A stretch of DNA of 64,000 nucleotides from a virus. Below the pieces are notes generated by a model, which ran no database searches, was not told the DNA's origin, and saw only the letters and a list, made by a program, of their open reading frames with translations. A program made the translations under genes and the position numbers. Below, in pieces: positions 41,732 through 57,200 of this stretch (its first letter is position 1; each line of letters begins with the position of its first letter). The stretch is taken from the IMG/VR virus record IMGVR_UViG_3300037010_001749, positions 1 through 64,000 of that record; one strand, given 5' to 3'.

Positions 41732-42481
41732 CTACTCCTTAGCCCTAGAGAAAAGCCTGGGCGCCGCAAACTTGCGCGCCTTCCGCCCGTGGACTGTGAT
41801 GACCACTGAGGCCCTATTGCTTCGGCCGTCGGCCGTGCCGTTGCATGCACCGCACGCGATGCACGTGAGGCGCTTGCCCGCCTCTTCGCTGGCCGGGCAG
41901 ACCATCTCACGCACTCCGGCCCCAGCCTTGGGCGTGCGCACACGGAAGTAACGCAGCCCCAGAGTCTGGGCCAGCGTAGCTTCAGCATCGCTGTCGACGC
42001 TGGCCATGCAGAGTTCGGTGACACCTTGCCACTGCTCCAGGGGCAAGTCTCTGTTCTGCCACTGGTGCGTGTAGCCTGTGTGGCCTGCGGCCTTGGACAC
42101 CAGGGCCTGCCAGACCCTGGCAGGCACAGCCATCGGGTCCCCATAGGAGCCCAGGCGGACCATTCGGCCCTCACCCAGCACCGAGGGGTCTTCGTGCAGA
42201 GGGTAGCCGCCGCGGCGCCACTTCTTGTAGACCACGGCAGGCCCACGGTCTACCAGCACATAGCAGGCACCGCCGCGGCTGGGGCGCCAGGCACACTCTC
42301 CGCACACAGAGACATCTGCGCCCGAGGCTACAGCCTCAGCCGGGTGCATGTCCTGGCGCAGGATGTATGTCTGCACCATGTTGCCTGTCTTCACGTTGGC
42401 GCTCGCCTTCAGGGCAATGGCCATGATGGGCGCCGCGTCAAGCAGCGACGCCCCTTGCCAGATGACGTGGCCCGTCGTCAT
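41732..42481 (-). CDS. Cys-rich putative metal/Fe-S protein (GP88-like)
   Basis: N.KTG, CGEC.......CY, R....GD, YTH, ASV and CPA.......C..C..C motifs. Confidence 0.45.
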   Translation of the reverse strand: MTTGHVIWQGASLLDAAPIMAIALKASANVKTGNMVQTYILRQDMHPAEAVASGADVSVCGECAWRPSRGGACYVLVDRGPAVVYKKWRRGGYPLHEDPSVLGEGRMVRLGSYGDPMAVPARVWQALVSKAAGHTGYTHQWQNRDLPLEQWQGVTELCMASVDSDAEATLAQTLGLRYFRVRTPKAGAGVREMVCPASEEAGKRLTCIACGACNGTADGRSNRASVVITVHGRKARKFAAPRLFSRAKE

Positions 42482-44610
42482 GTGGGTTCGTCGGCGAGCC
42501 AGCTTCGCGGCACGCAGTAGCATGCAACCATACCGCCTATAGTCGGCATCTCTTCGCCTTCCAAGTAGAAACCCCCATCGAGGTCAGCCGCCCCGGGCAC
42601 GTAGGGACTGCAGGCCCTGTTGGCATGACCGGCTGGCCCGGCGAACACCCACAGCAGCGGCGCACCACCCAACCAGTCAATCCGATAGTTGACGCCGTCA
42701 TAGACGCCTTCGATGATCGGCTCGCTGATATCGATGTTGTCTCGCCGGCGCTCGACGTGTTCCTCGACAAAGGCATCCTTGTCCGGCTCCTGATTCTTGA
42801 ACCCGAACCAGTTTTGCTGGAAGATCTCGGAGTCGAAGCCCACCTCTCGGTCAGCGCCGCTCTCAGCGGCGCTAATGCAGCACTCCTCCGTCAAGGCTTC
42901 GTATTCGCCCTCGGCCTCGGCCACCAGTTCAGTGACGGCCGCCTCGTAGCTGACGTCCTTGGCGTGCTGGCCATAGAACAGGTCATCCAGGCACCAGGGC
43001 TGTAACGAGTTGAAAGAGATCACGCCGTAGGCGAGACCAGTGGTGGGGTTGTAGTCGGGCATCGTTGCTCCTTAGGGCTAGGTACGCTCACACCTCAAGC
43101 CACCACGCGGCCCGAGGCTGAGAAGAAATATGTCAAGCAAAACTTGTCATCTTCGAGCCGCGCAACCGCCGGATGTGCAGCCACTCGCCGTCTGTGAGAC
43201 TGCGTAGCTTCACAGCGTCACCCGCTCAGCCAGCGCCTGGCTGATCTCACCATTCCGGGACAAGCTGTCGACGTAGTCCGAGAAGGCGCAGCGTGTGTCG
43301 GTCACGTGCATGGTGCCGTTGCCGCTGTAGTCGGGGGTCTTTTTGCGCTCCGCGTCGGGGTGCGCTTCCCAAAAGGCAGCGCGAACCTCACGCTGCGCGG
43401 TGTAGGTAGGCTTCACAGCGGGTAGCCCACCCGCTTCACGACCTTGCAGTTCACCACCTCGACCGTGTCTCCGACACGGATGACACCCTCCCGCCGGCTC
43501 ATACCAGGTTCAAGGTAGTGACCCACCAACTGTTGCAAGCCAGGTAGGCGTCGTAATCCTGGTAGAGATCCTTGGTGCCTTCGTAGTGGCTCACGCGGAG
43601 CCGGTACAGCTGCCGCTCCGCGTGGAGGTTTGCGTTACCGTGGTCCACCAGCACAGCCGCGACGCACTCGCTGTTGTTCTTGATGACGATGACCTGTGTA
43701 GCTGCGTTGGGGCTCATGCTTCGAACCCCGCCTGGAAGCCGAAGTAGGCGATGTCCACGTGGCCACGGCTGCAGAAGACCATGTCGAAGTCGCAGGGATT
43801 GACGAGGCCTTCGATGTACCCCTGCGCCTTCCGGTCTTCGCGCCAGGCTTTGGCCACTTCAGCCCGCGCCTTCTTCAGTGCAGCCAAGGCCTCGGTGTAG
43901 TTGTCGCCAGCCGGCACAGACACCAGTGCCACATGGAAGGGCCAGGCGTGCACCCAGTCGGGCGGGAACCTGTAGTGGAGCACCACCGTCCAGGGCTTGC
44001 TGGCCCTCACGACAGCGTCTCCGACTTAGCCTCTTCACCCAGGGCGCGCAACGTGGTGGCCAGCAAGGTACTGGCACGGATCGGGCTCATGCCCGAGGCG
44101 ATGAGCAGGCGCTTCGCGTCCTGCATGGCCTGCAGCCCCTGTAGATTGGTCTGGCGCACGGCACTGCTGAAGGTGCGGATGATTTCGTGTTCGATATCGT
44201 TCAAACGTCTTCCTTAGGGTTGGGGAAAGGCTTGCGCTCCAAGGGGAACGAGGCTAGTCGGATCTGGCCCATGCCCTTGCGAATGTAAATATGCTGGCGG
44301 TGATCAAAACGAAAGGCCAGCATGTCACTGGCCAGGTTGGCCTTCAGGATCGCCAAGTCTTCGGTGTGATAGAACGCCCATCGGGCGGCCTTGATGGCGC
44401 GGCCAAGGTCGCGCCAGGTCTAGCGCAGCGGGGTCACCCCACCACCGCCATGTCGCGCTCGCAAGTATTGAACTCCAGCCCGTGCTCCACGGCTAGGTCT
44501 TCGGCCTTCTGCAGAGCATCCTGCTCCGACTCGGCTTCGATTTCCACCATCGTGGCGTACGTCTCCGTGACGGCCACTTTGTACATTTTGGTCATGCTAT
44601 TGTCTCTAGA

Positions 44611-44628
44611 TTAGCTCGAACGTTATGC
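44611..44628 (+). repeat. attC right half-site (left border of array)
   Basis: TTAGCTCGAACGTTATGC is identical to the end of attC 46862-46931; no left arm upstream. Confidence 0.8.
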
Positions 44629-44744
44629 GCCTGTCTCGGAATGGGTGAGCTTCACCGCATGCCAAGTGCCTAAAACCTCGTCTGCCGCCGTCAGCCAGTC
44701 TTGCGGCAGCGGGTGCGCTTCAGCAGGGCCAGCGCAGCGGCACC

Positions 44745-45458
44745 CTACTCCACCGGGTTCACTGCGCTTCGCGCAATCTCAATGAGCAAGTCTCGGAACT
44801 CAGGCGGTGTACCGTTGCGGATCGCAGTCTTATCCTTGCCGCCCACCATCGCCATCATTCCAATGCGCCGCGCTTTCGCGTATCCGGGCAACTCCACGGC
44901 GCGCGGGTGTAGCCGCTGCGGTGTCTTGCCCCAGCGCAGTTCGGGCAGCAGGCGCTTTTGCACGCCAGCCACAAGCAGCCATGTTCCTTTGCCGGCAAGG
45001 TGCCCGTAGTGGCCTTGGTACACGCAGCACGTCCACAAGCCTGGCGCGGCCTCAACCCACCCACCTTTGCGCGGCGGCTTCTTCAGCCTGAAGTACGCCC
45101 ACGCATGCGAGTCCATCGGGTGTTCAAGCACGCCACCGTTCAGACGCAGCGCCGCCAGTGCGGTAGCAAAACACCCATCGTCGGCGCCCAGCTTGTACTG
45201 GTGCGGCTTGCGCGTGCTGCCGTGCCAGAACCTGCCCCAGCGCTGGCAGGGCAGGTGCGCCACTACCGGGTGCGGGCCTGCATAGGTACGGGCATCGCGG
45301 GCTTGGTCCCACGGGTCAACGCCCGGCACGCCTACATAGCAGCCCTTCGGCTCAACGTAGAGGGCCGCCACCGTACGGAAGCTCTCCACCTGGCGCATAA
45401 CCCCTCGCACAAGCTGAGAGCCAACGGCGGGTGTAATGGGTGCTTCAGGTTTGGTCAT
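44745..45458 (-). CDS. Cassette 1: divergent DNA cytosine methyltransferase-like protein
   Basis: VAAL.V, DAR.Y, VAH(L)PC, VLEHP and C-terminal TP..F...L; ATG lies inside the attC loop. Confidence 0.5.
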   Translation of the reverse strand: MTKPEAPITPAVGSQLVRGVMRQVESFRTVAALYVEPKGCYVGVPGVDPWDQARDARTYAGPHPVVAHLPCQRWGRFWHGSTRKPHQYKLGADDGCFATALAALRLNGGVLEHPMDSHAWAYFRLKKPPRKGGWVEAAPGLWTCCVYQGHYGHLAGKGTWLLVAGVQKRLLPELRWGKTPQRLHPRAVELPGYAKARRIGMMAMVGGKDKTAIRNGTPPEFRDLLIEIARSAVNPVE

Positions 45459-45491
45459 GCCGTTGGTTCCAGCTTTGCTTGGTCATTAGGC
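45395..45491 (+). repeat. attC site, 97 bp, R' degenerate (ATTAGGC)
   Basis: GCATAAC...; near-identical to 47467-47563. Confidence 0.82.
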
Positions 45492-45679
45492 GGCTTGCGC
45501 AACTCGAACATCACAACCCGCCGCAGACCCAGGCGCCGCAGGTAGTCGGCGCTCGGGTTCACCTTCTCGCCATCACGCAGCCGCGACAGGTAGCCGCAGT
45601 CAATCTCGGTCACGCGGGCCACGGCGCGCAGGCTGCCGTGCTGCGAGACGAGTTGGTCAATGCGCTCTGCCAGCGTCAT
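45455..45679 (-). CDS. Cassette 2: XRE/Cro-like HTH protein
   Basis: SLRAVARVTEIDCGYLSRLRDG...NPS...LRRLGL; ATGA-coupled at both ends. Confidence 0.75.
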   Translation of the reverse strand: MTLAERIDQLVSQHGSLRAVARVTEIDCGYLSRLRDGEKVNPSADYLRRLGLRRVVMFELRKPPNDQAKLEPTA

Positions 45680-46020
45680 GACTGATACCCGGCCAGCGCG
45701 TTGGCTAGCGCGGCATCCGCTTCGCCGAGAAAATCGTCCGGCACAATGAACGACACCCACGCGGGAGCGTTCGGCGTTGCTGGATGCCTCGCGTATTGCA
45801 AGAGCGTCGCAAGCAGCACGGCACAGCGCTTCGGCGCAGCCCGCACCAGCACTGCAAACCGCTCCAGGTGCTCCTGCGTCACGCCGTGGCAGCCTTCGCT
45901 GTACACGCACGAACCGCTGCCGTGGTTCAGCACGTTCACCATTCCAGCAGCCTCCACCAGCGGGCCTAACCCCTCTGTCGAGCCGAGTGCCAACGGCTGG
46001 CTGGTTTTGGTAGTGTTCAT
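45676..46020 (-). CDS. Cassette 2: hypothetical protein
   Basis: AAGGAG RBS and ATG inside attC 45964-46068. Confidence 0.65.
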   Translation of the reverse strand: MNTTKTSQPLALGSTEGLGPLVEAAGMVNVLNHGSGSCVYSEGCHGVTQEHLERFAVLVRAAPKRCAVLLATLLQYARHPATPNAPAWVSFIVPDDFLGEADAALANALAGYQS

Positions 46021-46068
46021 CGTTGCTTCTCCTTGGCCGTTGTCACCGGCTCAACTCCAACGTTAGGC
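45964..46068 (+). repeat. attC site, 105 bp
   Basis: GCCTAAC...GTTAGGC; near-identical to 48750-48854. Confidence 0.9.
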
Positions 46069-46069
46069 C

Positions 46070-46444
46070 TCACACCAGCCACGATGCAGCGGCAGCTTGG
46101 CGAGAGGCTGTGTCGCGTGCCTTGATGCCCGCCAACAAGTCGGCGGCCAGCAGCGGGTATTCGGCGGCGCACGATTCTACGTATGCGCGCAGGGCCGCCG
46201 CAGCGTGCTTATCATGCGTCAGGTCCAGCACAAAGTAAACGCAGCCGCAGTGCTTGCCGCCCGGCGCGCTACTGCCGTCCGTTCGCGTCACGTTGAATCT
46301 GCTGTACAGCCCACGATTCCTGTCACAGGGCATTGGCTCGCCGCACAGTTCACACTTGCTCATGCTTTTCCTCGCTCCGGCACCAGGCCGAACCATTCGC
46401 ACAAGCTGCGCCCCAACGGCGGGGCACAGCAACTCGGTAGGCAC
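46070..46444 (-). CDS. Cassette 3: conserved phage hypothetical protein (start may be 46363)
   Basis: GLY..F.V.RTDG......FVLDL..D..A..AL.AY motif. Confidence 0.65.
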   Translation of the reverse strand: MPTELLCPAVGAQLVRMVRPGAGARKSMSKCELCGEPMPCDRNRGLYSRFNVTRTDGSSAPGGKHCGCVYFVLDLTHDKHAAAALRAYVESCAAEYPLLAADLLAGIKARDTASRQAAAASWLV

Positions 46445-46487
46445 CGCCTGCGCGGCCGTTGGTGCCAGCTTTCCTCAATCGTTAGCC
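46387..46487 (+). repeat. attC site, 101 bp
   Basis: GCCGAAC...GTTAGCC with inner CCAACGGC/GCCGTTGG stem. Confidence 0.85.
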
Positions 46488-46500
46488 AGCGCCAAAACCA

Positions 46501-46821
46501 TCACGCCGGCTCGTAGGTGGCTGCGAAGATGTCCGGTTTGCATGGATAGTGCTCGCCGGCCACGCCGCGAATGATCCAGTCGCCTGGGCTAGCGACATGC
46601 TGGCCTTCAAGCGTCGGAACCATGATGTTGTTGTTGTGCCATTGCGCCAGCTCGCGCCCGATGGCGTGCTGTCCCTCGTTGATCCAGAGAATCAGCGCAT
46701 AGCTACTTCCGTCGTTGCGGAACTGGCGTGCTTCAATCACGATAGGTTTCTTCCTGAAGCGCGTTGTCTGTTCGGTTGTTGCCGCGTCCAGCTCATGGCC
46801 GGCGCTGAGAAATGTTTGCAT
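46501..46821 (-). CDS. Cassette 4: conserved phage protein (PGDYG-like)
   Basis: RKKP.VIEA.QF...TLEG...PGDWII.GV.GE.YPCKPDIF..TYE. Confidence 0.7.
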   Translation of the reverse strand: MQTFLSAGHELDAATTEQTTRFRKKPIVIEARQFRNDGSSYALILWINEGQHAIGRELAQWHNNNIMVPTLEGQHVASPGDWIIRGVAGEHYPCKPDIFAATYEPA

Positions 46822-46861
46822 GACGGTTCCTTCTGTGTTGTGCCAGCATGGGTCGGGCGCT

Positions 46862-46931
46862 GGCTAACCCCTCGCTCAAGCGGATTTGCCACGGAGTACC
46901 ATGTCAAACGCGCTTAGCTCGAACGTTATGC
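46862..46931 (+). repeat. attC site, 70 bp
   Basis: GGCTAAC-CCCTC-GCTCAAGC...GCTTAGC-TCGAAC-GTTATGC; extra C in L''. Confidence 0.92.
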
Positions 46932-47530
46932 GCCTTGAGGCACGCCACCATTTGCCGCGCCGACTGTCTCGCGTCCATCAACGGGTGGTGCGCCGGTAGT
47001 TCGTCCGGCAAGCGCTCGGTCAGTTCCAGCGCGTTGCCGCCCAGCGCCAGGATCACGCTTGCCAAGTCGTGCAGCGGGTACGGGCCTTGCCACTCGCGCT
47101 CGGCGTGGTTCAGCTTCACGCACGCGCTCAGAAAGTTGGCTTCCACCGGCCAAGCGCAGTCAGCCACCAGCACCGCGCCCTGGTCGGCCCAGCTTCGCCA
47201 CTCATGCCAAAAGTGGTTCCGCAGGTGCTGCTTCGTTGGGCTTGTCACCGGCAGCGCCGGCACATGCTCGCCCACCCACAGCCGGCTTTCGGCGGTGCCG
47301 GTGCAGTCGGCGGGGTCGCAAGCAATGCAGCCTTCGTCCAGCCGCTCGCCTTCTCGGTTCACCACTACCCAGGCCACTGCAAAGCCCTCGCCATGCAGGC
47401 CAATGCTTTCCACGTCAAACACCATAAATTTGTCCATCACCATCCTCTCGTTTCTCGCTGCAGGCGCCGTAACACCTCGCACAAGCTGAGAGCCAACGGC
47501 GGGTGTAGTGGGTGCTTCAGGTTTGGTCAT
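46904..47530 (-). CDS. Cassette 5: DEDDh 3'-5' exonuclease/exoribonuclease
   Basis: VFDVES.G and H.PL.DA motifs; ORF begins and ends inside attC sites. Confidence 0.75.
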   Translation of the reverse strand: MTKPEAPTTPAVGSQLVRGVTAPAARNERMVMDKFMVFDVESIGLHGEGFAVAWVVVNREGERLDEGCIACDPADCTGTAESRLWVGEHVPALPVTSPTKQHLRNHFWHEWRSWADQGAVLVADCAWPVEANFLSACVKLNHAEREWQGPYPLHDLASVILALGGNALELTERLPDELPAHHPLMDARQSARQMVACLKAHNVRAKRV

Positions 47531-47563
47531 GCCGTTGGCTCCAGCTTTGCTCGATCGTTAGGC
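47467..47563 (+). repeat. attC site, 97 bp
   Basis: CCGTAAC...GTTAGGC; near-identical to 45395-45491. Confidence 0.85.
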
Positions 47564-47863
47564 GCTTACCGCAGGGCCAGCAGGCAGCGGCATCCAGTGC
47601 GTCACACGTCTCACCAGCGCTGGCGGCAGCGGCCAGTTGTGCTGGTCCACCTCCCACCGAGGGCCCTCACCAGTAAGCCGGAACTTCGTGATGTGCGCGT
47701 GTCCAGGAGTCAGCCGGTCAAAGACCCCGCGGCGCCACACCAGCACGGTGGCGTTGTGACTGGGCAAGCGCTCGCCAGTCGGCACCCACGCGCATAACCC
47801 CTCACTGCAACCGAGCCCCAACGGCTGGCCCGTGCTGCTGTCATCGGTAGTTTCAGTGGTCAT
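47558..47863 (-). CDS. Cassette 6: DUF551-like protein
   Basis: W....ERLP.....VLVW...VTHWMPLP; GAGG RBS and ATG in the attC loop; stop inside the R' box. Confidence 0.75.
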   Translation of the reverse strand: MTTETTDDSSTGQPLGLGCSEGLCAWVPTGERLPSHNATVLVWRRGVFDRLTPGHAHITKFRLTGEGPRWEVDQHNWPLPPALVRRVTHWMPLPAGPAVSA

Positions 47864-47911
47864 CGTGTTTCCTCTCGTGCCGTTGTGTCCGGCTCACCTC
47901 GAACGTTAGGG
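47792..47911 (+). repeat. attC site, 120 bp
   Basis: GCATAAC...GTTAGGG. Confidence 0.85.
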
Positions 47912-48079
47912 CGCAGGGCCACGCTTGCGGTTCTCGCGGCGCTGCAACTTCGCTTCCAGCGCCCTGACCTCTGGCACGTACTCCGGGCGCACATGCACTG
48001 TCACCGCAGTGCGCCCGGATTCCTTGTGGCGCTGCCGCTCGTCGGCCTTGCGCTCTGCTGCTGTTTTCGCTGGGCTCAT
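47906..48079 (-). CDS. Cassette 7: 57-aa basic putative DNA-binding protein (not in the ORF track)
   Basis: MSPAKTAAERKADERQRHKESGRTAVTVHVRPEYVPEVRALEAKL...; ATGA-coupled to the upstream ORF; TAA inside the R' box. Confidence 0.6.
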   Translation of the reverse strand: MSPAKTAAERKADERQRHKESGRTAVTVHVRPEYVPEVRALEAKLQRRENRKRGPAP

Positions 48080-48318
48080 GCCAGCGTGGCGCCGGCCGCT
48101 AGGTAGTGCGCCAGCTCGCTGTCCGGGATCGAAACGAACCTGTAGCCCATGCGGTGCGCAGTGGAGCCATCAGGAATGGTCACAACGCTGAACGGCTCAC
48201 CCTTCATTTCGGCAATCTGCTTTGCGTAGGCACGCACTGGCTCGGCCTGCGAGTGGATCGGTTCCACTTGCAGGGCTGCGCGCTGGCGCTTCAGTGTCTT
48301 GGTCATCTCAGCTTGCAT
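48076..48318 (-). CDS. Cassette 7: 80-aa hypothetical protein
   Basis: AAGGAG RBS then ATG (MQAEMTKTL...), downstream of a cassette-internal promoter. Confidence 0.65.
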   Translation of the reverse strand: MQAEMTKTLKRQRAALQVEPIHSQAEPVRAYAKQIAEMKGEPFSVVTIPDGSTAHRMGYRFVSIPDSELAHYLAAGATLA

Positions 48319-48357
48319 CTCTTGCTCCTTCTGCTGCACTGTAGCCGCAGTGGCTAC

Positions 48358-48386
48358 AGTATCGCTCATCGTGACACGTCACGCAA
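48358..48386 (-). promoter_or_regulatory. Sigma70-like promoter with overlapping inverted-repeat operator
   Basis: Minus strand TTGCGT-N17-GATACT; CGTGAC-AC-GTCACG at 48370-48383. Confidence 0.65.
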
Positions 48387-48401
48387 GCATTCTCGCGTGC
48401 G

Positions 48402-48507
48402 CCCTAACCCCTCGTTGCAACCGAGCCCCAACAGGCTGCGGTCAGTTGTGGCCTTTCGGCCTGCTTATGCACGGCCTGTTGGGGCCGGCTGAACTCGAAC
48501 GTTAGGC
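48402..48507 (+). repeat. attC site, 106 bp
   Basis: CCCTAAC...GTTAGGC; core identical to 49114-49219. Confidence 0.92.
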
Positions 48508-48806
48508 CCTTCAATGCCGCGAGCAATCTTGCTGGCGGCATTCCGCGCGTTCACCGTCACGCCGTCAGCGTGCGTCTCGCCCCAGCGGCGGGCAATGGCG
48601 GCGCAGCGTGCGCGCTCGGCGGCCACGGCCTTGTCAATGCGCCACTGCACATGCGCCGGGCTTGACCAATGGCCGCACTCGGCGGGGTCATCGTTTGTGC
48701 CGCAGATTGTCATGGTCAGGTATTGGCCCTCGCGCTGCGGTGGCAGCGGGCCTAACCCCTCTGTCGAGCCGAGTGCCAACGGCTGGCTGGTTTTGGTAGT
48801 GTTCAT
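48465..48806 (-). CDS. Cassette 8: hypothetical protein
   Basis: RBS and ATG in attC 48750-48854, stop in attC 48402-48507; AVAAERARCAAIA motif. Confidence 0.65.
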   Translation of the reverse strand: MNTTKTSQPLALGSTEGLGPLPPQREGQYLTMTICGTNDDPAECGHWSSPAHVQWRIDKAVAAERARCAAIARRWGETHADGVTVNARNAASKIARGIEGPNVRVQPAPTGRA

Positions 48807-48854
48807 CGTTGCTTCTCCTTGGCCGTTGTCACCGGCTCACATCGATCGTTCGGT
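48750..48854 (+). repeat. attC site, 105 bp
   Basis: GCCTAAC...GTTCGGT. Confidence 0.88.
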
Positions 48855-48861
48855 GTGTTGC

Positions 48862-49143
48862 TCACCGCGAGCAACCCAAATGCTTGCCGTCGCTCGTCAT
48901 GCGTGGCGTGAGTCCGCCGGCCGAAGTGCGCAGATACTGGCACCCGGTCAGCGCGTCGGTGCTGGGCACCAAGCCGCTGCGGGCGCCCCACGCGCCGGGG
49001 TCCGTGTCATCGCGCCCAATGGGCAGCAGGCCCACAACCAGCATCATGGCCACGCCAATCAGCAGGTACTTCCCGCACCAGCGGGCGAACATTTTTGCTT
49101 CTATCAACGACACGCCTAACCCCTCGTTGCAACCGAGCCCCAA
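48862..49143 (-). CDS. Cassette 9: small membrane-anchored protein (DUF6440-like); start uncertain
   Basis: Hydrophobic segment, then D..TGCQYL....GGLTPR...DGK. Confidence 0.55.
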   Translation of the reverse strand: MGLGCNEGLGVSLIEAKMFARWCGKYLLIGVAMMLVVGLLPIGRDDTDPGAWGARSGLVPSTDALTGCQYLRTSAGGLTPRMTSDGKHLGCSR

Positions 49144-49219
49144 CAGGCTGCGGTCAGTTGTGGCCTTTCGGCCTGCTTATGCACGGCCTGTTGGGGCCGG
49201 CTGAACTCGAACGTTCGGC
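49114..49219 (+). repeat. attC site, 106 bp
   Basis: GCCTAAC...GTTCGGC. Confidence 0.92.
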
Positions 49220-49220
49220 A

Positions 49221-49523
49221 TCAATACCGGCTTTCGAGTTTCGCCAGCGCCGCTTTGATGATCGACTGCATCACCTCATCGGTCATGTGCTTGGCCATTG
49301 CGTCCTTGATGCCGGTTTCCAGCAGCGGCGCGTAGGTGGCCAGCACTTCCTTTTCGATCAGTTCGCGCACGTACCGCTTGACGACATCATCGAATGGGTT
49401 GTTGTAGCTCTTGGACAGTTCAGCGATGCTGCGCTGAACGGCACCCTTCACTACTTCACCGATCTGGCTGTCCATCACAGTCTTGGCGATGAACTCGTTA
49501 ATTTGCTGCGGGGTCAGTTCCAT
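49221..49523 (-). CDS. Cassette 10: helical hypothetical protein
   Basis: AAGGA RBS; fills the cassette. Confidence 0.7.
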   Translation of the reverse strand: MELTPQQINEFIAKTVMDSQIGEVVKGAVQRSIAELSKSYNNPFDDVVKRYVRELIEKEVLATYAPLLETGIKDAMAKHMTDEVMQSIIKAALAKLESRY

Positions 49524-49546
49524 GTCGTTTCCTTCTGTGCGTTGAT

Positions 49547-49651
49547 GCCGAACTGGCAGTTCAAGCAGAGCCCCAACGGCGGCCTGCTTTTGTGGTTAAA
49601 AACTCCGGCGTCCGTGGCGCCGTTGGTACCTGCTTAACCTAAACGTCAGCC
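49547..49651 (+). repeat. attC site, 105 bp, R' degenerate (GTCAGCC)
   Basis: GCCGAAC-TGGCA-GTTCAAGC...GCTTAAC-CTAAAC-GTCAGCC. Confidence 0.85.
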
Positions 49652-49687
49652 GGCACCAATACCCTCGGTGCCGGCATACTCGTGTTG

Positions 49688-49966
49688 TCAGAACGTGGTG
49701 GGCTGCGCAATGCCGCGAATCAACTTCATGAAGCCCACTTGCAGGTCAGTGGCTCCCATGCTGACCCACCGCTGGTCAAGGTCCAGTGACAGCGGCCTGC
49801 CATCGGCCACAGGCGTATCGGTGCGCGTGATGTCAGGGTGTTGACGCAGTTTCGCCACAAAAGCGCCGCACTGCTCGGCCAGCGCCTTGCCCTCGTTCAT
49901 CAGCGCTACTTCAGCACCGCTCAGTTGACGGTAGCCCGTCACTTTCGGTTGAATCATCGTTTCCAT
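49688..49966 (-). CDS. acb2: Cassette 11: Acb2-family anti-CBASS cyclic-nucleotide sponge
   Basis: 92 aa; K.TGYR.LS..E..LMN..K...RW...G.TD.Q.G.M..IR.IAQP..F matches the Acb2 pattern as I recall it. Confidence 0.85.
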   Translation of the reverse strand: METMIQPKVTGYRQLSGAEVALMNEGKALAEQCGAFVAKLRQHPDITRTDTPVADGRPLSLDLDQRWVSMGATDLQVGFMKLIRGIAQPTTF

Positions 49967-50006
49967 GTGGTTCCTTAAGTTGCATGCCAGCGTTGGTGCG
50001 GGTGCT

Positions 50007-50076
50007 GGCTAACCCATCGCTCAAGCGGATTTGCCACGGAGTACCAAGTCAAACGCGCTTAGCTTGAACGTTCGGT
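50007..50076 (+). repeat. attC site, 70 bp
   Basis: GGCTAAC-CCATC-GCTCAAGC...GCTTAGC-TTGAAC-GTTCGGT; near-identical to 46862-46931. Confidence 0.92.
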
Positions 50077-50310
50077 CCGTTCATTCGCCACCGCCACTGC
50101 ATCAAGCACACCCGGCTTCATCGCCAGTTCCAGCAGGCTGCCCATCATGCGCTTGCCGTGCGCCCGGTTGGCATCCAGTAGATCGATGTACTTCTTGCGA
50201 TACTGGTGAAGTTCTTCGTTTTCCTCGCGCAGCCGCTCTAGTTCGTGATGCATGTCCAGCACGTCGGCGGCCATCTGCACAGCCAGGGGCACTTTGTAGT
50301 CTCGCCTCAT
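50059..50310 (-). CDS. Cassette 12: coiled-coil hypothetical protein
   Basis: GGAG RBS; stop lies in the L' box of the next attC. Confidence 0.65.
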   Translation of the reverse strand: MRRDYKVPLAVQMAADVLDMHHELERLREENEELHQYRKKYIDLLDANRAHGKRMMGSLLELAMKPGVLDAVAVANERTERSS

Positions 50311-50329
50311 CTCGTTTCTCCACCAACGG

Positions 50330-50365
50330 GCCTAACCCGTCGCTCAAGTTGAGAGCCAACGGCGC
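50330..50365 (+). repeat. attC left half-site (right border of array)
   Basis: GCCTAAC-CCGTC-GCTCAAGT..GAGAGCCAACGGC; no right arm, runs into the next phage gene. Confidence 0.8.
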
Positions 50366-50377
50366 CAGCAGGCACCG

Positions 50378-51289
50378 TCATGCCGCCTCCTTAGCCTTGA
50401 GGAGGCCCAGTTGGTGGGCGATACCTTCGATCTCATCGAAGGCGATGTCATGGCAGCCGACCACGATATTGCCGTTGGTGCAGATCTTCGTCAACTCGTA
50501 GTGACCCAAGGTCATGCCTACCTCGTAGTCCTTCTTGCCCTTCATGACGCGCTGGATGACCGGCCAGAGCTTCTTCGCGTCTTCGACGGGGATGCTGGCG
50601 TGGCGGCTGGTCTGGATCATGAACGACGGCAAGTCCAGCCGCAGCATCGTCGGAAGATCCCGGCTGAGCGCTGGGCTCCCACTCCGCCGCCAGGCTGTAA
50701 TGGCGACGGCCTGCAGCCTCCGAAAGGCCTTGGCCTGCGACACTGCGCGGCGTTTCTCCGAGACGGCTTTCTTGGCCAGGTGCTCGCGGTGCTGCTCCGG
50801 GCTCCACGTCGCCGCATCGATCGGCTTGATACGGGCCTTGTGCTTCAGCAGCTTCGCAAACTGGTTGAAGTCGGCGGTGATCTGCGCCGCTTGGCTGAGG
50901 TAGACAGGCCGATTGCCGTCGGCCTTGGCGCGTAGGGCCTTGGCCAGCAGGTTGTCGACGAGGGCCTGAGTGCCTTCCGTGTCCGGCGCGTCGTGCTCCG
51001 GGTTCAGCACGGACACCTGCTTCAGGTGCCTGGTGGCGTGTCGTGCCTCCCAGACGTGCCTGTTTGTCGTGGAAGAATTCTTCTCCAGGTTGATGGCCAC
51101 CCAGCCGCCGGGTAAGTGGCGACCGATGCAGTAGTGCTTGCCGTAGCTGTAGAAGTAGTCGCCTTCGACGAAGGCCTGGATGACGCGGCCGCCGTTCATG
51201 CCGGGACGCTCGGGCATCCGAGCTTCAGCCTGCCGTTTGTGGGCCCAGATGTGGGCCAGTTCTTCCGAGTGGTTGTACACCGTCTTCAT
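50378..51289 (-). CDS. Hypothetical early protein, ~303 aa
   Basis: GAGG RBS; ATGA overlap with the upstream ORF; YSYG.HY and GCH motifs. Confidence 0.7.
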   Translation of the reverse strand: MKTVYNHSEELAHIWAHKRQAEARMPERPGMNGGRVIQAFVEGDYFYSYGKHYCIGRHLPGGWVAINLEKNSSTTNRHVWEARHATRHLKQVSVLNPEHDAPDTEGTQALVDNLLAKALRAKADGNRPVYLSQAAQITADFNQFAKLLKHKARIKPIDAATWSPEQHREHLAKKAVSEKRRAVSQAKAFRRLQAVAITAWRRSGSPALSRDLPTMLRLDLPSFMIQTSRHASIPVEDAKKLWPVIQRVMKGKKDYEVGMTLGHYELTKICTNGNIVVGCHDIAFDEIEGIAHQLGLLKAKEAA

Positions 51290-54200
51290 GCGATGAGTCC
51301 TCGTTGTCTTGCGTACTCGACCAGATGGGGTTGCCACTCAGCTTCGCTGTTGGCTGACCGACTATTGAAGCCGGCGAGGCGTGGAGCGGTCAGGTAACCC
51401 GACTCGATCTCCTCGTTGATGGCCTCGACATCAAGGCTGAAAATCTCGCGCCCCCTCGGGGTGCTGAGGCTGGCGTATCCGTCGCCTCGTTCAAACCACA
51501 CGCTGGCCACGTACTCGTGGTCAGCGATCTTCTTTGCCATGGCGGCTCCTTAGGGCTAGAGAACCCGGCCGATGCGGTCCTGGCCTTTGATCTTGATGGC
51601 CATGTCAGTACAGGTTCTCGCTGTACAGCGTCCCATCGTTGGCATCGTCGCCACCGCAGCGGCGGACGATCTGGCCTGCCGCTTCGGCAACCTTCCAGGC
51701 CACCGTCCGAGACATGAACACACCGTGCTGGTCGATGAAGCCCTGCTCCTCTTTCGGGTCATGCGGAGTGAAGGCCTGCACGAGTCGCCACTGGTCGCGC
51801 ATCACCAGGTCCCAGTGCCGGGCGCCGACCAGCATGTGGTAGTCGCCGATCTTGGTGGCCGCGCAAACGACGCGTCTCATCGCACACCTGACAGGTTCTC
51901 GTACTCTTCGACGCCCATGATGACGCACTCGATGACAGCCAGGCCGTCTCGAAGCCACATCGGGCACTCGCGCTTGGCCTGCTGCCCGTCTTCCTCCGTC
52001 AGGTGGAACTGGTTCGCACCCTTCTCGAAGCCCAGCGGCTTGCCGGCGCGATCCTTCTGCATGGCCACCCACACTTGAGTCGGCGCCGTCACTTCAGCAC
52101 ACCTGCAATCTTGGCGTACTTCTCGAGCAGTTCCGGGAACGCATCTTCGATGCGCCGGATGCTGTCGTCGTCAGCCACGAGGTAGGCCTCGGCCAACTTG
52201 GCGGCGAACCCTCCGCCGTAGGCTCGCATCACCCGGATGATGTCCAGGCGGTCGTTCAGTTCGTAGTGCATGACGCCTCCTTAGCGCTGAGGAGCCAAGG
52301 TATAGAAGCGGACCGCCGCATCGCGGCGCCAGGCATCCAGCAGTTCACCGTCAGCGCCGGGATACTTCTGGACCTTGTCGCCCACCCAGGCCCGCTGCAG
52401 GTTCTCCTTCAGACGTTCCGCCTGAACTGGGTCAGCAAAGCGCGACACCGTGAGCAACTCGTTGGGCGGGTCGCACACGACGGTGTACAGCGTCGGGTGG
52501 TAGAGCGGCGGGATACCCGCCTTCTGCTGATGCCACGTGCTCAAGCTCGATCCTCCTTAGCGTTGAGGGCGTTGGCGATAACCTGGGCCTGCCCCATGCC
52601 GGAGCACTCGCAGACGACCTGGTTTCCGTACCAGTCGTCGCCTGCCTCTCGTGCGTACGGCGGCGGGTCGATGTTCGTGTCCACCACTGAGGCATCAAAG
52701 CAGCAGGCATGGCCGAGGATGCTGCGCTCCACAGCCTTGTACCGCGGCGTCATGTCACCTCCCGCAAGGTGGCCTTGTCGCGCAAGTCAGCACGCCACTG
52801 CTCGGCCCAGCTGGTCAAGTCTGGGATGTGCTCACGGACAAGCTCGCACACCATGTCCGCGAAGTAGCCTGCGGCGCAGCGCTGCCAGAACTCATCGGCG
52901 TTGCCGTAGCAACACGCGCCCAGGCTTTCCTCGCCCAGCATCTCGCCACGGTGCCATAGGCTCACGTCGGCGTTGAACCAGGCGAAGTCCTCGATCTCGC
53001 GGTACTGCTGCGGCGTCCACCCGCACTCCTTCACGAAATGCCGGTGCATGCTGACCGACTCTTCCGGAGGAGCATCGAAGCAAATCATGTAGTCGGTGCC
53101 AGGGATCACAAGCACTGGTTTCATTTCTGCCTTTCAGCGAGGCCAGAGGCTGCGGCGGCTTCCGCATGCTCCAGCGAACCCAGGTAGCTGCGGCCTTCAA
53201 TGGCGCGCAGTTCGGTCAGGCGGTCGCCCAACTCCTTAGCCCTGAGGAATTCGTCCCCGGCCAGCCGGCTGCCCAGCGCCTTCAGGATCAGCAGTGTGTC
53301 GAACTTGTTGAGTTCGAAGATCCAGTTGGGCTTGAGGTGCAGTTGCGGCTTGTCGATTCGTTCACCGTTCATCGGCTATCCCTCATCTTGTCCACGTTGA
53401 AGCGCTTGATCCAGCGCTCGATGATCGTGTCGCACACGCCCAGGCCATCCAGCAGCCCATCGAGGTCTTCCGCACGCAGGCATAGGCTGACGTGCCCGTA
53501 ACTCTCGTGGCTTTCGATACCCCGCTCCGGATCACCCTTGAACGCCTCGTCGAGCATGTCAATCAGCTGAGTGACGTAGTAGCCACCTGGCTGCTGATTG
53601 CGCTCTTCGGCGTCACGCAGCACAAACTCCAGCCGGTGCCCATGCCAGGTCTTGACGTTGAGCCAGCCGTCGACGTGGGTCAGCTCAGCATAGATGTCGT
53701 CGTCGTCGCTCACAGCTTCTCCGCCACCAAGCCAGCGAGCATCGTGCGCATGGCCTGGGTGTAGCCCATCAGGTAGAGATCGCCGTTCTCCTTAGCGTTG
53801 AGTATGATGTTGTCCAGGCCCTGGAACATCGATTCGATGCGGTAGTCATCGACTAGCCGGTTGCGCCGTCGGCGGTCAGGCCGCTCGATCCCTTGATTGT
53901 CGGTGTAGTAGTCCATGTCAGGTCTCCACGATTCGTGCGTCCCAGCCGTAGGCGATACTCTCGCCTCCCTTGGACAGCATGTTGAACATCTGCTTGATGT
54001 CATCGAGCACGTCATTTGGGTCACGCAGCATCTCGCCTTCCTCGGACGGGAGAAGCGTGACCATGATGTGCACGGGCTTCGCCCGCGGCTCGCCATCATC
54101 GGGGCCATCGGCCCCGGCACGCTCGAAAGGCTCGTGGCTGTCGCAGCCGTCGTCGTACTCTTCAGGGAGCATCAGCTTTCCTCGGGTGCAGCGTAGAGCT

Positions 54201-57200
54201 GCTCAACGACAAGGTCCTGGGGCCGGGCCAGCGGCGGTTGGGTGTAACGCCAATGTTGCGACTCATCGGAGTTCTTCCAGAACCAGCGCGTGCCTGCGTA
54301 ATACGTCAAGGGGCTCGCCTGAAAGGCGGCCTGCAGCATTGCTCCATAACCATCTTCTTCAACCGCCTCCATGGCGTCGAGCATCGCTCGTGTCGCCACG
54401 GTGGGCACCAGCTTCCAGTGGGTCACAGGTCCACCTCGCGCCCATCGGGCATGATCAGCGTGGTCTCGGTGCTGATACCGAGCACCGCGTCGAGGATCTT
54501 GAGGCTGTAGCTGGGCAGGGCCGGCGCCACGAGATTTTCGAGCGTCTCGTGCAGGGTTTCCACGTGGTCGTCCTGGTTGGGGTCGAAGTCGTCGGGCACT
54601 TCGACCTCGAACGTCTCGCGCTCCCAGACGGCCTGGTCGCGTTGGATTCGGATCTTCATTCAATGCCTCCAAACAAAGCCGTCTTCGGTGAGGAAGCCGC
54701 CGCCGATGCCACGTTCGGTGTAGGCGCCTTGCAGGGCGTACTCGAGGACGTCAAGCTGGGTGAGTCTCACCGCCCGGCTCCTTCGCGTCCTGGTACATCG
54801 GGCACGACGGCGTCAGGCCGTCACAGTTTTCGCGAATCAGACGCCGACGGACTTCCGCGTAGCCGTCGCTCATGGCGCAATAGCTGTCGCCGTCCTGATC
54901 TGCGTCTCGGTAGGGGCATCGCCCGCACTCGGTCACAAAGAAGCTGAAGCCCTTCACAGCAGCCTCGCTACTTCAAGGCGAAACTGGTCAATCATCCTGG
55001 TAACGTGCCAGGTGATCGGTAGCACGTCATCGACGCGCCACCATGAGCCGGCCCTGATCTTCTTCGGCGTGAAGCCCCAGGCCTCGATGTCCTGCGCCTT
55101 CATCACGAAGGGCAGGGCCGCGTTGAGTTCGGCGGTGCTCACGTAGAGCACACCGTCGATCATTTCAGTCTTCAAAGGACCTCCTTAGGGCTGAGGATCA
55201 GGCAAAGCGCTGGGCGCTCTCTCGGTACCAGACATACTCTTCTTGGGCCCAGATCCAGTCTGGGTAGCCAAGGCACTTGACGGCTTGCCAGATTTCCTCG
55301 CAAGCCCCGGCCTGGCCTTCAGCGTAGGCCTTGACGTATTCGGCGTACACCTCCTCGGGTACGTCCATCACTGCAGTTTCGCCAACTGTTGCTTGCCCAG
55401 CGTAGTCAACCACAGCTTGCCCGCTGAGTCCACCGTGATGTACCTCAGGTCATCGAAGTAGGTGGCCCACAGCCGCGGGCCCACCGGATCGAAATCGTCG
55501 AAGAAGATGACCTTGGTGGCACCGCCACCAGTGTTGTGCACGTACTGCAGCACCTGCTTTTGGAATGTGCTCATCCCGCCTCCTTAGCGTTAGGGAGCCG
55601 CCGGTGCTCCTGCCGGTCGTCTTTCAGCCGCTTCTCGACCCGGTCACCAGTCCCGCCGTTGACGGCGATGTGCACAAGGCCGTCGACCCAGGGCTCGCAG
55701 TAGAAGCTGACCGTGTTGGCCACCAGGATGGCGGCCAGGCGTTGGGCCGTGGCCTCATGCATCTCGAAGATGGCGACCCCATCGGGACCACCCTTGATGA
55801 GCAGGGCCACGTCAGTCCCCCGGCGTGTCGCTGCTGGGCGCGTCGTAGCTGGCGTCGGCACCACCGCCGCCGAAGTCACCACCGCCGCCGGACTCAATTC
55901 CGTCGGTGCCGCCGAAGCCCACGGTCGGACGGCCTGTGCCCTCGGGAATCTCGGGGCTGTCCTGGATCGCATCGACGATCAAGCTGCCCACAGCCATGGC
56001 CTCGGTAGGCAGTGCGCCGACTGCCGGCGGCGCCCAGTGAAGCTCCAGCGCCTCGGGGTAGAAGGTTCTGCCATAGCATTCGGCATAGTGCGTCACGTAA
56101 ACACGGCCCGAACTGCTGGCGTTGTTCGGCGCGCTGGCGTCGTCCAGGCGCCAGACGTCACCCCACTTGTCAGTGATCCGCTGGCCGGCCACAACAGGCT
56201 TGAACCACTTGTCCAGCAGCGTATAAGTGCCGTTGTACCCTTGCTTTTCCATGTCTGACTCTCCTTAGTCCTGGGGAACGTAATTCTTGAAAAAGACCCG
56301 GCCATAGCTCTGACTCGGGACCTCATCGGGAAACGCGCTGCGGCTTCCGCAGCGATCTTGGTTGGGTAGAGCACGTCGCGCAAGTCTTGCACGCGCCAAA
56401 GATCCACGACATCAGGCATCGCCTACGTGGCGCAAGTAATCAGTCACTTGGTTTCCTTTGCCAGTGAGCGGGCCACACGTGCCCGCAGCTTCTCAAACTG
56501 CACCATCTCATCGGTAATCTCGTCGAGCACCTCGTCGTAATAGTTGACATCGGGGCAGGTGGCGATCTGGTTGTGCAATTCCGCGATGGCCAGGCCCAGG
56601 CCCTCGTGGACCATCTTCAGGTTCTTGCCTGTGAAGATCACGGAGCGCACCCCATGATCTGCTTGCGCACCCAGACATCCTGCTCGCGCCGGTCGATCAG
56701 TTCCTTCAGCGCGTCAGCCAGATCCTGGCTGTCCACGTGCTCGAAGTCTCCAGTGGGTAAACGCGCTCCGCGGTTGGCTGACAGGCCCCCCTCGTGGCGC
56801 ATGCGGCGCAGCTTGCTGTGCATCGTGTGCAACTCCTCAAGGCTAAGGTTCAGTACGGTCCCCAGTCGTATGAGTAGGGCACGTCGAACCAGGCCTGCTG
56901 CGGCGACATGCCTGCTTCGAAGCGGCTCTTCCATGCCTGGCGTTCTTCCAGCGGGCCGGACTCCGCGTCATAGTGCGCCAGCTTCTTCTCGGCGGCGATG
57001 CGCTTGAGTTCGGCAAACCACACAGCCTTGTCCCAAGGCAGGCCCACCAGGTGCTTGTGGCGGTTCACCACGTTGAAGTAGATGCCGTCCTCGTCACTGG
57101 CGAAGTAGCCGACGATGCGCTTGCCTTTGTGCTCGGTCACGGCCGGCACGCTGAAGTAGGTGTCAGCGTAGCCGCTGGCGTAGCAGGTGAGTCTCAGCTG

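Follow-up and report, generated by a model that had tools for sequence, protein, structure and literature searches.

The locus and its Acb2 gene

The DNA analysed here, referred to as the window, is the first 64 kb (positions 1 to 64,000) of the linear 85,895-bp virus record IMGVR_UViG_3300037010_001749 of IMG/VR. It carries a gene of the Acb2 family, known for sponge proteins that counter the cyclic-oligonucleotide-based antiphage signalling system (CBASS), as cassette 11 (49688..49966, minus strand, 92 aa; Pfam PF24729, PDB 8h2j/8ixz) in an array of integron-type attC recombination sites. The whole array spans 44587..50406 and comprises 11 complete attC sites, two half-sites and 12 cassettes; the top strand of its attC sites is the plus strand, and its genes are all on the minus strand. 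The record has a CheckV completeness of about 71% and a G+C content of about 62%, and it contains phage genes for a tape-measure protein, tail protein J, an SbcC-like nuclease, a DNA polymerase, a primase and a helicase; the phage carries its own replication genes. No close relative of the record was found among GenBank phages, and a megablast search with the array against GenBank phages gave no match.

The original prediction had placed a 92-aa open reading frame (ORF) with an Acb2 signature at 49688..49966, and this frame is present as claimed, on the minus strand. The letters of the proposed motif were recovered, whereas its spacing was not, as six residues rather than three separate LS from MN. 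A comparison with hidden Markov models, which had been suggested as a check, assigned the protein to PF24729 (Acb2_Tad1_hairpin; E 2.7e-12, 47.1 bits at a cut-off of 27), and a sequence search of PDB matched 8h2j_A and 8ixz_A (Acb2 of phage PaMx33, 'p26'; E 3.6e-9) over residues 7-92. In this alignment, Y12, K27, R66 and T73 lie opposite Y11, K26, R67 and T74 of PaMx33, so that all four published ligand-contact residues are kept. According to passages in PMC10312549, Y11 and K26 of the PaMx33 protein are essential for the binding of a cyclic dinucleotide (cyclic GMP-AMP, cGAMP), and R67 and T74, which vary among homologues, are essential for the binding of cyclic tri-adenylate (cA3). At E <= 0.001, 1,824 relatives were found in the protein collection; an alignment of 41 relatives shows no variation at Y12 and K27 and a conservation of at least 90% at R66 and T73. 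Judged by its sequence, the 92-aa ORF is an Acb2-family protein. It resembles PaMx33 Acb2 (p26; 8H2J, 8IXZ) and its relatives JBD67 and T4 Vs.4 in being a single domain of about 90 aa with the Pfam Acb2/Tad1 hairpin and in keeping the pocket residues. It differs from PaMx33 Acb2 in being a distant relative (E 3.6e-9) whose gene is bounded by attC sites.

A Shine-Dalgarno-like AAGGAA (49971..49976, minus strand) lies 4 nt before the ATG of Acb2, within its 5' leader, and probably gives the gene a ribosome-binding site of its own. The leader, about 40 nt from the GGCTAAC box to the ATG, is conserved in four other viral contigs with an Acb2 relative (L138, L146, L149 and L159). Just past the stop codon, a 9-bp G+C-rich inverted repeat (49649..49675) overlaps the cassette tail; it is found in this copy only.

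The attC sites on both sides of Acb2

Two covariance models were used for the attC sites, one built from phage sites (R1) and one from 45 bacterial chromosomal attC sites only (R2). To the left of Acb2 lies a10, the site of cassette 10 (49547..49651, plus strand; R'' GCCGAAC, R' GTCAGCC), which scores 78.2 bits with R1, of which it is a training member, and 37.7 bits (E 1.3e-7) with R2. To the right, and upstream of the gene in coding sense, lies a11, the Acb2 cassette's own site (50007..50076, plus strand; R'' GGCTAAC, R' GTTCGGT), a short type of 70 nt with 34.3 bits (E 1e-6) in R2. The proposed position of the ORF between two attC sites was thus borne out, both flanking sites being found by the model that had been built from bacterial sequences only. 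The predicted span of 49645-50076 starts at the crossover G of a10 and takes in all of a11. The cassette itself, as a recombination unit on the plus strand, occupies 49646..50070 and consists of the 6-nt tail TCAGCC, the antisense gene and its own site a11 as far as the crossover G.

On the whole 85,895-bp record, R2 found 12 sites, namely the 11 complete sites and the right border, all on the plus strand and all within 45395-50406, and nothing beyond these at E <= 0.01. On the plus strand, the left ends of the sites have the form ..YAAC and the right ends the form GTT....; AAC is present in 11/11 complete sites and GTT in 9/11 (a10 has GTC and a1 has ATT). Their fold consists of two paired boxes, an unpaired spacer of 5-6 nt, a long stem in which two bulges of one base each are separated by 6 bp, and a variable loop, with site lengths of 69-120 nt, and the fold of the minus strand is the more stable one in 10 of the 11 sites. 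In the alignment of the 11 complete sites, 87.2% of the cells are in standard pairs, compared with at most 43.8% when the partners are slid, and compensatory changes affecting both sides occur at 9 pairs. A strict regular expression with gapless arms had no match because the attC arms are bulged, and a loose scan for CCAACGG was uninformative. Rfam has no attC family, and its scan of 42000-54000 gave a chance snoRNA match only. A blastn search of site a4 against plasmids yielded two short partial matches only.

Cassette signature and mobility

If a circle with one attC is opened at G|TT, the left tail of the resulting cassette complements the R'' side of its own site, and this relation was scored at seven variable positions per cassette. 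The R'' side matched the tail left by the preceding attC at 67/84 positions, versus 34/77 for the tail of its own site, and 0 of 20,000 permutations of the tails reached 67. Four cassettes score 7/7 and the Acb2 cassette scores 6/7. Since the ends are complementary, the cassettes appear to have once been circles with one attC each.

Nucleotide homology with other viral loci follows the same borders. Positions 46913-47562 (cassette 5) are 86% identical to L122 and positions 48821-49223 (cassette 9) are 81% identical to L133, and both blocks stop at an attC R'. Cassettes are common to the window and to two phages that have otherwise no detectable gene in common with it or at most one small ORF, with the borders at the crossover point. 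One such phage, G007, shares with the record only cassette 1 (68% aa identity), Acb2 (70% aa identity) and one small ORF, and the cassettes of these two genes are adjacent in G007 and 4.3 kb apart in the window. The identity of the attC sites upstream and downstream of shared genes (71 vs 53, 72 vs 65 and 59 vs 56%) leans weakly to the upstream site. Which attC travels with which gene was settled by the homology blocks together with the end-complementarity test: each attC precedes its gene in coding sense and moves with that gene.

Repeats of this kind might also be regulatory hairpins of the phage, terminators or RNA-processing sites that resemble attC and take no part in site-specific recombination. 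Their position between the genes of a single operon, whose transcript would contain them in folded form, would suit this role, and no integrase is present. However, a model trained on bacterial attC only finds these sites and no others, the end complementarity obeys the G|TT crossover rule, the homology blocks between phages end at R', and the array of a related phage, G009, adjoins a true integron integrase (IntI). The chance that the repeats are mere hairpins appears to be minute.

A second possibility is that the array is a fossil, that is, captured in the past, with cassettes that are now immobile and with Acb2 as a fixed, ordinary early gene. The record without an integrase, the changed crossover cores of a10 (GTC) and a1 (ATT) and the half-sites at both array ends would suit such a history. 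It fits less well with cassettes that are 81-86% identical in nucleotide sequence in unrelated phages, with the four cassettes of perfect 7/7 end complementarity, with the GTT kept in 9/11 complete sites and with the IntI encoded by host genomes that have this attC family. A fossil array is therefore regarded as improbable.

Mirrored orientation of the cassette genes

In attC sites, extrahelical bases are located near L'', and according to passages in Nivina et al. 2016 (PMC5027507), the arm that carries them in the wild-type bottom strand is the one facing AAC. In the sites of the window, it is the plus-strand arm with AAC that has the bulges, which makes the plus strand the attC top strand. 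This call agrees with the strand of the matches of both models in bacterial arrays and with the geometry of the integrase gene intI in the bacterial locus L191.

The coding strand of the cassettes was called by a log-odds score of codon usage; the first two coding-strand scores, based on the G+C content of third codon positions, were dropped as they chose shadow frames. All 12 cassette genes of the window are antisense to the attC top strand; by codon usage, 0/12 cassettes are sense, 11 antisense and 1 uncalled. Viral tallies, which are not all independent, gave 1/52 sense, 47 antisense and 4 uncalled at 15 other loci, and 2 sense and 89 antisense in 22 viral sources when a start codon was required. 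The opposite was seen in five bacterial arrays, where codon usage called 31/44 cassettes sense, 5 antisense and 8 uncalled (31/36 of those called). The family matches in the window (Acb2, DUF551, PHROG) are all on the minus strand as well. The suggestion that the phage uses the same format as bacterial integrons thus stands in that the cassette is a genuine integron-type cassette, but fails for the gene orientation, which is mirrored.

Another observation concerns the starts of the cassette genes. Read in bottom-strand sense, a Shine-Dalgarno motif followed by an ATG is found inside the attC in 36/110 viral sites and in 34/64 sites of at least 90 nt. Such loops occur in the window in a1, a2, a5, a6 and a8, and elsewhere in L123, L125, L127, L129, L131-L133, L135, L138, L149, L154, L159 and L172. 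In 31/36 of these sites, the reading frame continues without a stop for 40 codons or more beyond the attC, compared with 31% of arbitrary frames. As controls, the top-strand sense of the viral sites gave 3/110, none of them running on, and bacterial sites gave 0/49 in bottom-strand sense and 1/49 in the other. At these sites, the attC loop seems to hold the translation start of the cassette gene, with the attC arm encoding its first ~20 residues.

Acb2 cassettes and arrays in other phages

Acb2 has been found as a cassette in other phages too. Sites of this attC family occur at 9 of 53 viral loci with an Acb2 relative; there are 40 of them, each on the strand that does not code for Acb2. Acb2 is bracketed by attC on both sides in at least 6 of these 53 other viral contigs (L138, L139, L149, L154, L159 and L172), a recurrence in phage arrays that supports the view of Acb2 as a cassette put forward in the original prediction. 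The attC upstream of Acb2 in coding sense has R'' GGCTAAC in 6/7 attC sites of other contigs, the same as in a11, and most copies of the Acb2 cassette carry the complementary GGCTAAC|G at their far end. Some copies hold a second ORF between Acb2 and the cassette tail, of about 62 aa in L138 (3290-3480), L146 and L149; a second ORF of another type, cysteine-rich and of about 93 aa, follows Acb2 in L139 (3275-3555), L154 and L159.

Two of the phages with arrays deserve a closer description. G007 (L202, 3409-8986) is a complete 41,375-bp phage with direct terminal repeats, in which 13 sites of this attC family but no tyrosine recombinase were found, and a host enzyme would thus be needed if its cassettes move. 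G009 (L200/L201) is a 39,245-bp IMG/VR contig with terminase, portal, major head and tape-measure genes, which mark it as a true phage, and it has no gene in common with the record. It encodes an integron integrase (TIGR02249, 427 bits; L201:6716-7693, minus strand) and also a second tyrosine recombinase. Nine attC sites (L201:8179-11389, plus strand) lie next to its intI in the usual geometry, and the cassette genes point towards intI.

Bacterial integrons with the same attC family

A scan with a 31-letter pattern of the left arm found at least 120 bacterial loci, mostly in Burkholderiales (Rubrivivax, Aquabacterium, Leptothrix, Hydrogenophaga), and many of the loci listed have several copies 400-1,200 bp apart. 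The R1 scores of bacterial sites reach 84 bits. Three of five attC-bearing genomes examined contain a bona fide IntI (TIGR02249, 443-474 bits), with a clear attC beside the gene in L191 and L192 and one weak match at the third locus. The array of the window thus shares its attC consensus with the chromosomal integrons of Burkholderiales, in whose genomes IntI is present, but the bacterial sites are mostly 126-129 nt long and the bacterial genes are sense to attC. From this sequence evidence, the hosts are likely to be Rubrivivax-like Burkholderiales, the phage attC sites belonging to the family of their chromosomal integrons.

A tblastn search with the phage cassette proteins gave no match within the bacterial loci listed (at least 120). 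Of 401 sampled Burkholderiales genomes, one contained Acb2, and these 401 genomes gave no evidence of Acb2 cassettes stored in bacterial integrons. The cassette pools of phage and host look separate.

Short-read data also bear on the integrity of the locus. Five sequencing runs contain the window or part of it, two of them from microbial mats and perhaps its source, and two sediment studies hold about 70% of its sequence words. When contigs from four of the runs were placed on the window, they broke at the repeated attC sites; the joints of these contigs have listed sides of at most 31 letters, all at attC repeats, and cannot show excision or array variants. Contigs from three or four metagenome runs agree with the window as far as 46890, 50143 and 50363 and then diverge. 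The records being contigs, this is no more than a hint that some sequence of cassettes 5 and 12 and of the a12 arm has other neighbours as well.

With short-read assemblies breaking at repeated attC and no Logan contig reaching across the whole array, a bacterial chromosomal integron might have been mis-joined into a viral contig. However, contigs of 10.6 kb and 15-16 kb join the phage flanks to the outer cassettes on both sides without differences, the cassette genes belong to phage families and are on the coding strand of the phage, their orientation is opposite to that in bacterial arrays, and the same layout is present in a complete phage genome with terminal repeats. An assembly chimera is accordingly given almost no credence.

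Other sites and genes of the array

The remaining attC sites are all on the plus strand. The left border is the half-site a0 (44587..44630), of which only the L'-R' arm is present and whose tail GTTATGCGCC agrees with the R'' side of a1 at 7/7 positions. It is followed by a1 (45395..45491; 61.1 bits, R' = ATT), a2 (45964..46068; 73.7 bits), a3 (46387..46487; 54 bits) and a4 (46862..46931; 49.3 bits), a site of the short type that is 92% like a11. Further to the right are a5 (47467..47563; 72.2 bits), a6 (47792..47911; 46.4 bits), a7 (48402..48507; 66 bits), a8 (48750..48854; 68.6 bits) and a9 (49114..49219; 66.7 bits). Beyond a10 and a11, the right border site a12 (50330..50406) has only its R''-L'' arm clear and scores 15.5 bits (E 0.023) with R1 and 22.3 bits (E 0.0013) with R2. 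Both ends of the array are thus half-sites: at the left border only the right arm is present, and at the right border only the left one. The half-site a0 also provides the ATG of a 53-aa ORF (44434..44595), whose product starts with MTK, as do the leaders encoded by the attC loops for cassettes 1 and 5. Near-identical pairs of attC (90-99% identity) stand beside unrelated genes within this one array, starting at 45395/47467, 45964/48750, 48402/49114 and 46862/50007.

The other cassette genes are all on the minus strand. Cassette 1 (44745..45398) encodes 217 aa of phrog_12600, with relatives of 64-68% aa identity in the arrays of L121, L135 and G007. Cassette 2 (45455..45957) has two ORFs, one of 93 aa without a family and one of 76 aa with a weak match to a helix-turn-helix (HTH) regulator (phrog_8, E 9e-4). 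Cassettes 3 (46070..46363, 97 aa) and 4 (46501..46821, 106 aa) match phrog_9572 and phrog_419, respectively, and the product of cassette 5 (46904..47443, 179 aa) might be an Rv2179c-like 3'-5' exonuclease. Sequence searches of PDB with cassettes 1, 4 and 5 gave chance-level matches only, and Atlas look-ups of cassettes 1 and 5 returned viral hypothetical clusters and the exonuclease lead only. Cassette 6 (47558..47785) encodes a DUF551 protein. Cassette 7 (47906..48369) again has two ORFs, one of 97 aa without a family and a basic one of 57 aa with a weak regulator match (phrog_536, E 6e-4). No family was assigned to cassette 8 (48465..48713, 82 aa) or cassette 12 (50059..50310, 83 aa) and no clear one to cassette 10 (49221..49523, 100 aa); cassette 9 (48862..49113, 83 aa) matches phrog_14094.

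To the right of the array, in the early region, a palindrome with CCTCCTTAG is repeated at 50378-50413, 52268-52303 and 55571-55606, where genes end and ribosome-binding sites lie. For the protein of the right flank (50378-51337), no relatives were found in viral_contigs.

Counter-defence content and earlier reports

The original prediction had also suggested a counter-defence array, and this is supported in part. Of the 12 cassettes of the window, only that of Acb2 has a recognised counter-defence family; the other 11 hold phage-type genes or genes without a family. Across 82 cassette ORFs of viral arrays, Pfam matches comprised Acb2 (6), N6_N4 DNA methylase (3) and DUF551 (3), and single matches to DUF1643, HTH families, ASCH and two DUFs; the Acb2 count of 6 is inflated, as eight of the viral arrays had been chosen via Acb2.

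A dedicated bank of counter-defence genes, in which most of the cassettes without a family would encode inhibitors of immunity, might explain such an array. Apart from Acb2 itself, points in its favour are the N6_N4 DNA methylases in 3/82 viral cassette ORFs, the location of the array in an early region of small genes and the existence of two-gene Acb2 cassettes with partner ORFs. In addition, cassettes 2 and 7 each pair a small ORF without a family with a weakly regulator-like one, and a small ORF paired with a regulator is the layout of acr-aca operons. However, these regulator matches are weak, with E values of 6e-4 to 9e-4, the majority of cassette ORFs lack a family, and DUF551, ASCH, DUF1643, HTH proteins and the Rv2179c-like lead are not known inhibitors. 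A dedicated bank is thus considered rather unlikely, and the proposal that cassettes 2, 3, 7, 8, 10 and 12 encode inhibitors is retained as a reasonable lead.

Clusters of attC sites lacking an integrase (CALINs) are known from phages. Qi et al. 2023 (PMC9892861) described phage integrons as well as 17 CALINs, each with two sites or more, and found that five phage attC sites recombined with IntI1; in their view, cassettes with methylase genes may help phages to evade restriction. As neither intI nor attI nor the cassette promoter Pc was found beside the array of the window, this array is a CALIN as well. In this it differs from a complete integron, although the related phage G009 does have IntI. 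It resembles the CALINs in the main text of PMC9892861 in being an attC cluster without an integrase, there in virulent phages, and differs from them by its 12 cassettes, its anti-CBASS gene and its systematic inversion. The main text of PMC9892861 has no mention of Acb2 or of genes antisense to attC, and its supplementary tables might list more.

On the bacterial side, integrons, both sedentary chromosomal and mobile, have been portrayed as stores of cassettes for anti-phage defence (Darracq et al.; Kieffer et al.; summarised in PMC13434031). The array of the window is like them in its attC family, its recombination logic and its small genes of the phage-host arms race; it differs in being owned by a phage, in a cargo of counter-defence and phage early genes, in genes antisense to attC and in a record without a Pc/attI platform. 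A review (PMC13434031) treats integrons, in the passages concerned, only as bacterial defence banks. No paper linking attC cassettes with anti-CBASS genes in phages was found in the literature search, which covered articles without their supplements, and neither Acb2 as cargo nor the inverted layout was found in print. Phage CALINs are thus known; what appears to be new is a putative anti-CBASS sponge among the cargo and genes that are systematically inverted with respect to attC.

A mirrored cassette array as a proposed exchange platform

Taken together, the data are best explained by an Acb2-family sponge gene that is a mobile unit of a mirrored, integron-type array of 12 cassettes in a tailed phage, the array being an exchange platform, and this explanation is held with good, though not full, confidence. 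The Acb2-family protein would act as a sponge for cyclic oligonucleotides and thereby counter CBASS-type immunity, and its unit (49646-50070) would be one mobile unit of the 12-cassette array within an early or accessory operon on the minus strand. An integron integrase, supplied by the host or, in some relatives, by the phage, would move the cassettes. In the mirror layout, the recombinogenic bottom strand has the sense of the mRNA, and expression would presumably come from read-through of early phage transcription and not from a Pc promoter. The array would serve the exchange of early accessory genes of phages, with counter-defence (Acb2, and DNA methylases in relatives) as its recognisable part.

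Several observations weigh against this explanation. The 85.9-kb record, about 71% complete by CheckV, has no tyrosine recombinase (PF00589), and neither attI nor Pc was identified for the array. The R' cores are degenerate in a10 (GTC), which is the left junction of the Acb2 cassette, and in a1 (ATT), and these two junctions may no longer recombine. No attC of this family was seen at 44 of the 53 Acb2-bearing viral loci, and Acb2 is therefore mostly an ordinary phage gene. A recognised counter-defence family was found in only 9/82 viral cassette ORFs, and a CD-NTase (SMODS) gene in only 1 of the 5 attC-bearing bacterial genomes examined. The viral orientation tallies include L121, L124 and L135, which partly repeat each other.

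A broader idea would be that phages of Burkholderiales keep a mirror-image integron system, in which IntI of host or phage shuffles units between unrelated phages and so creates a phage-only pool of counter-defence and early genes. This generalisation is tentative and credited at somewhat short of even chances. If it is true, the orientation would insulate the phage pool from the pool of host defence cassettes, as the cassettes of each side would be silent in the array of the other.

Bacterial integrons have recently been described as defence banks, and the locus shows the phage side, with a gene of the immune-evasion type as a cassette that uses the attC sites of the hosts. The mirror orientation and the start codons in attC loops raise questions about the origin and expression of cassettes. 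If integrases do move these units, phages would have a site-specific route to trade counter-defence genes, and the cassettes without a family would represent a compact and well-delimited set of candidates.

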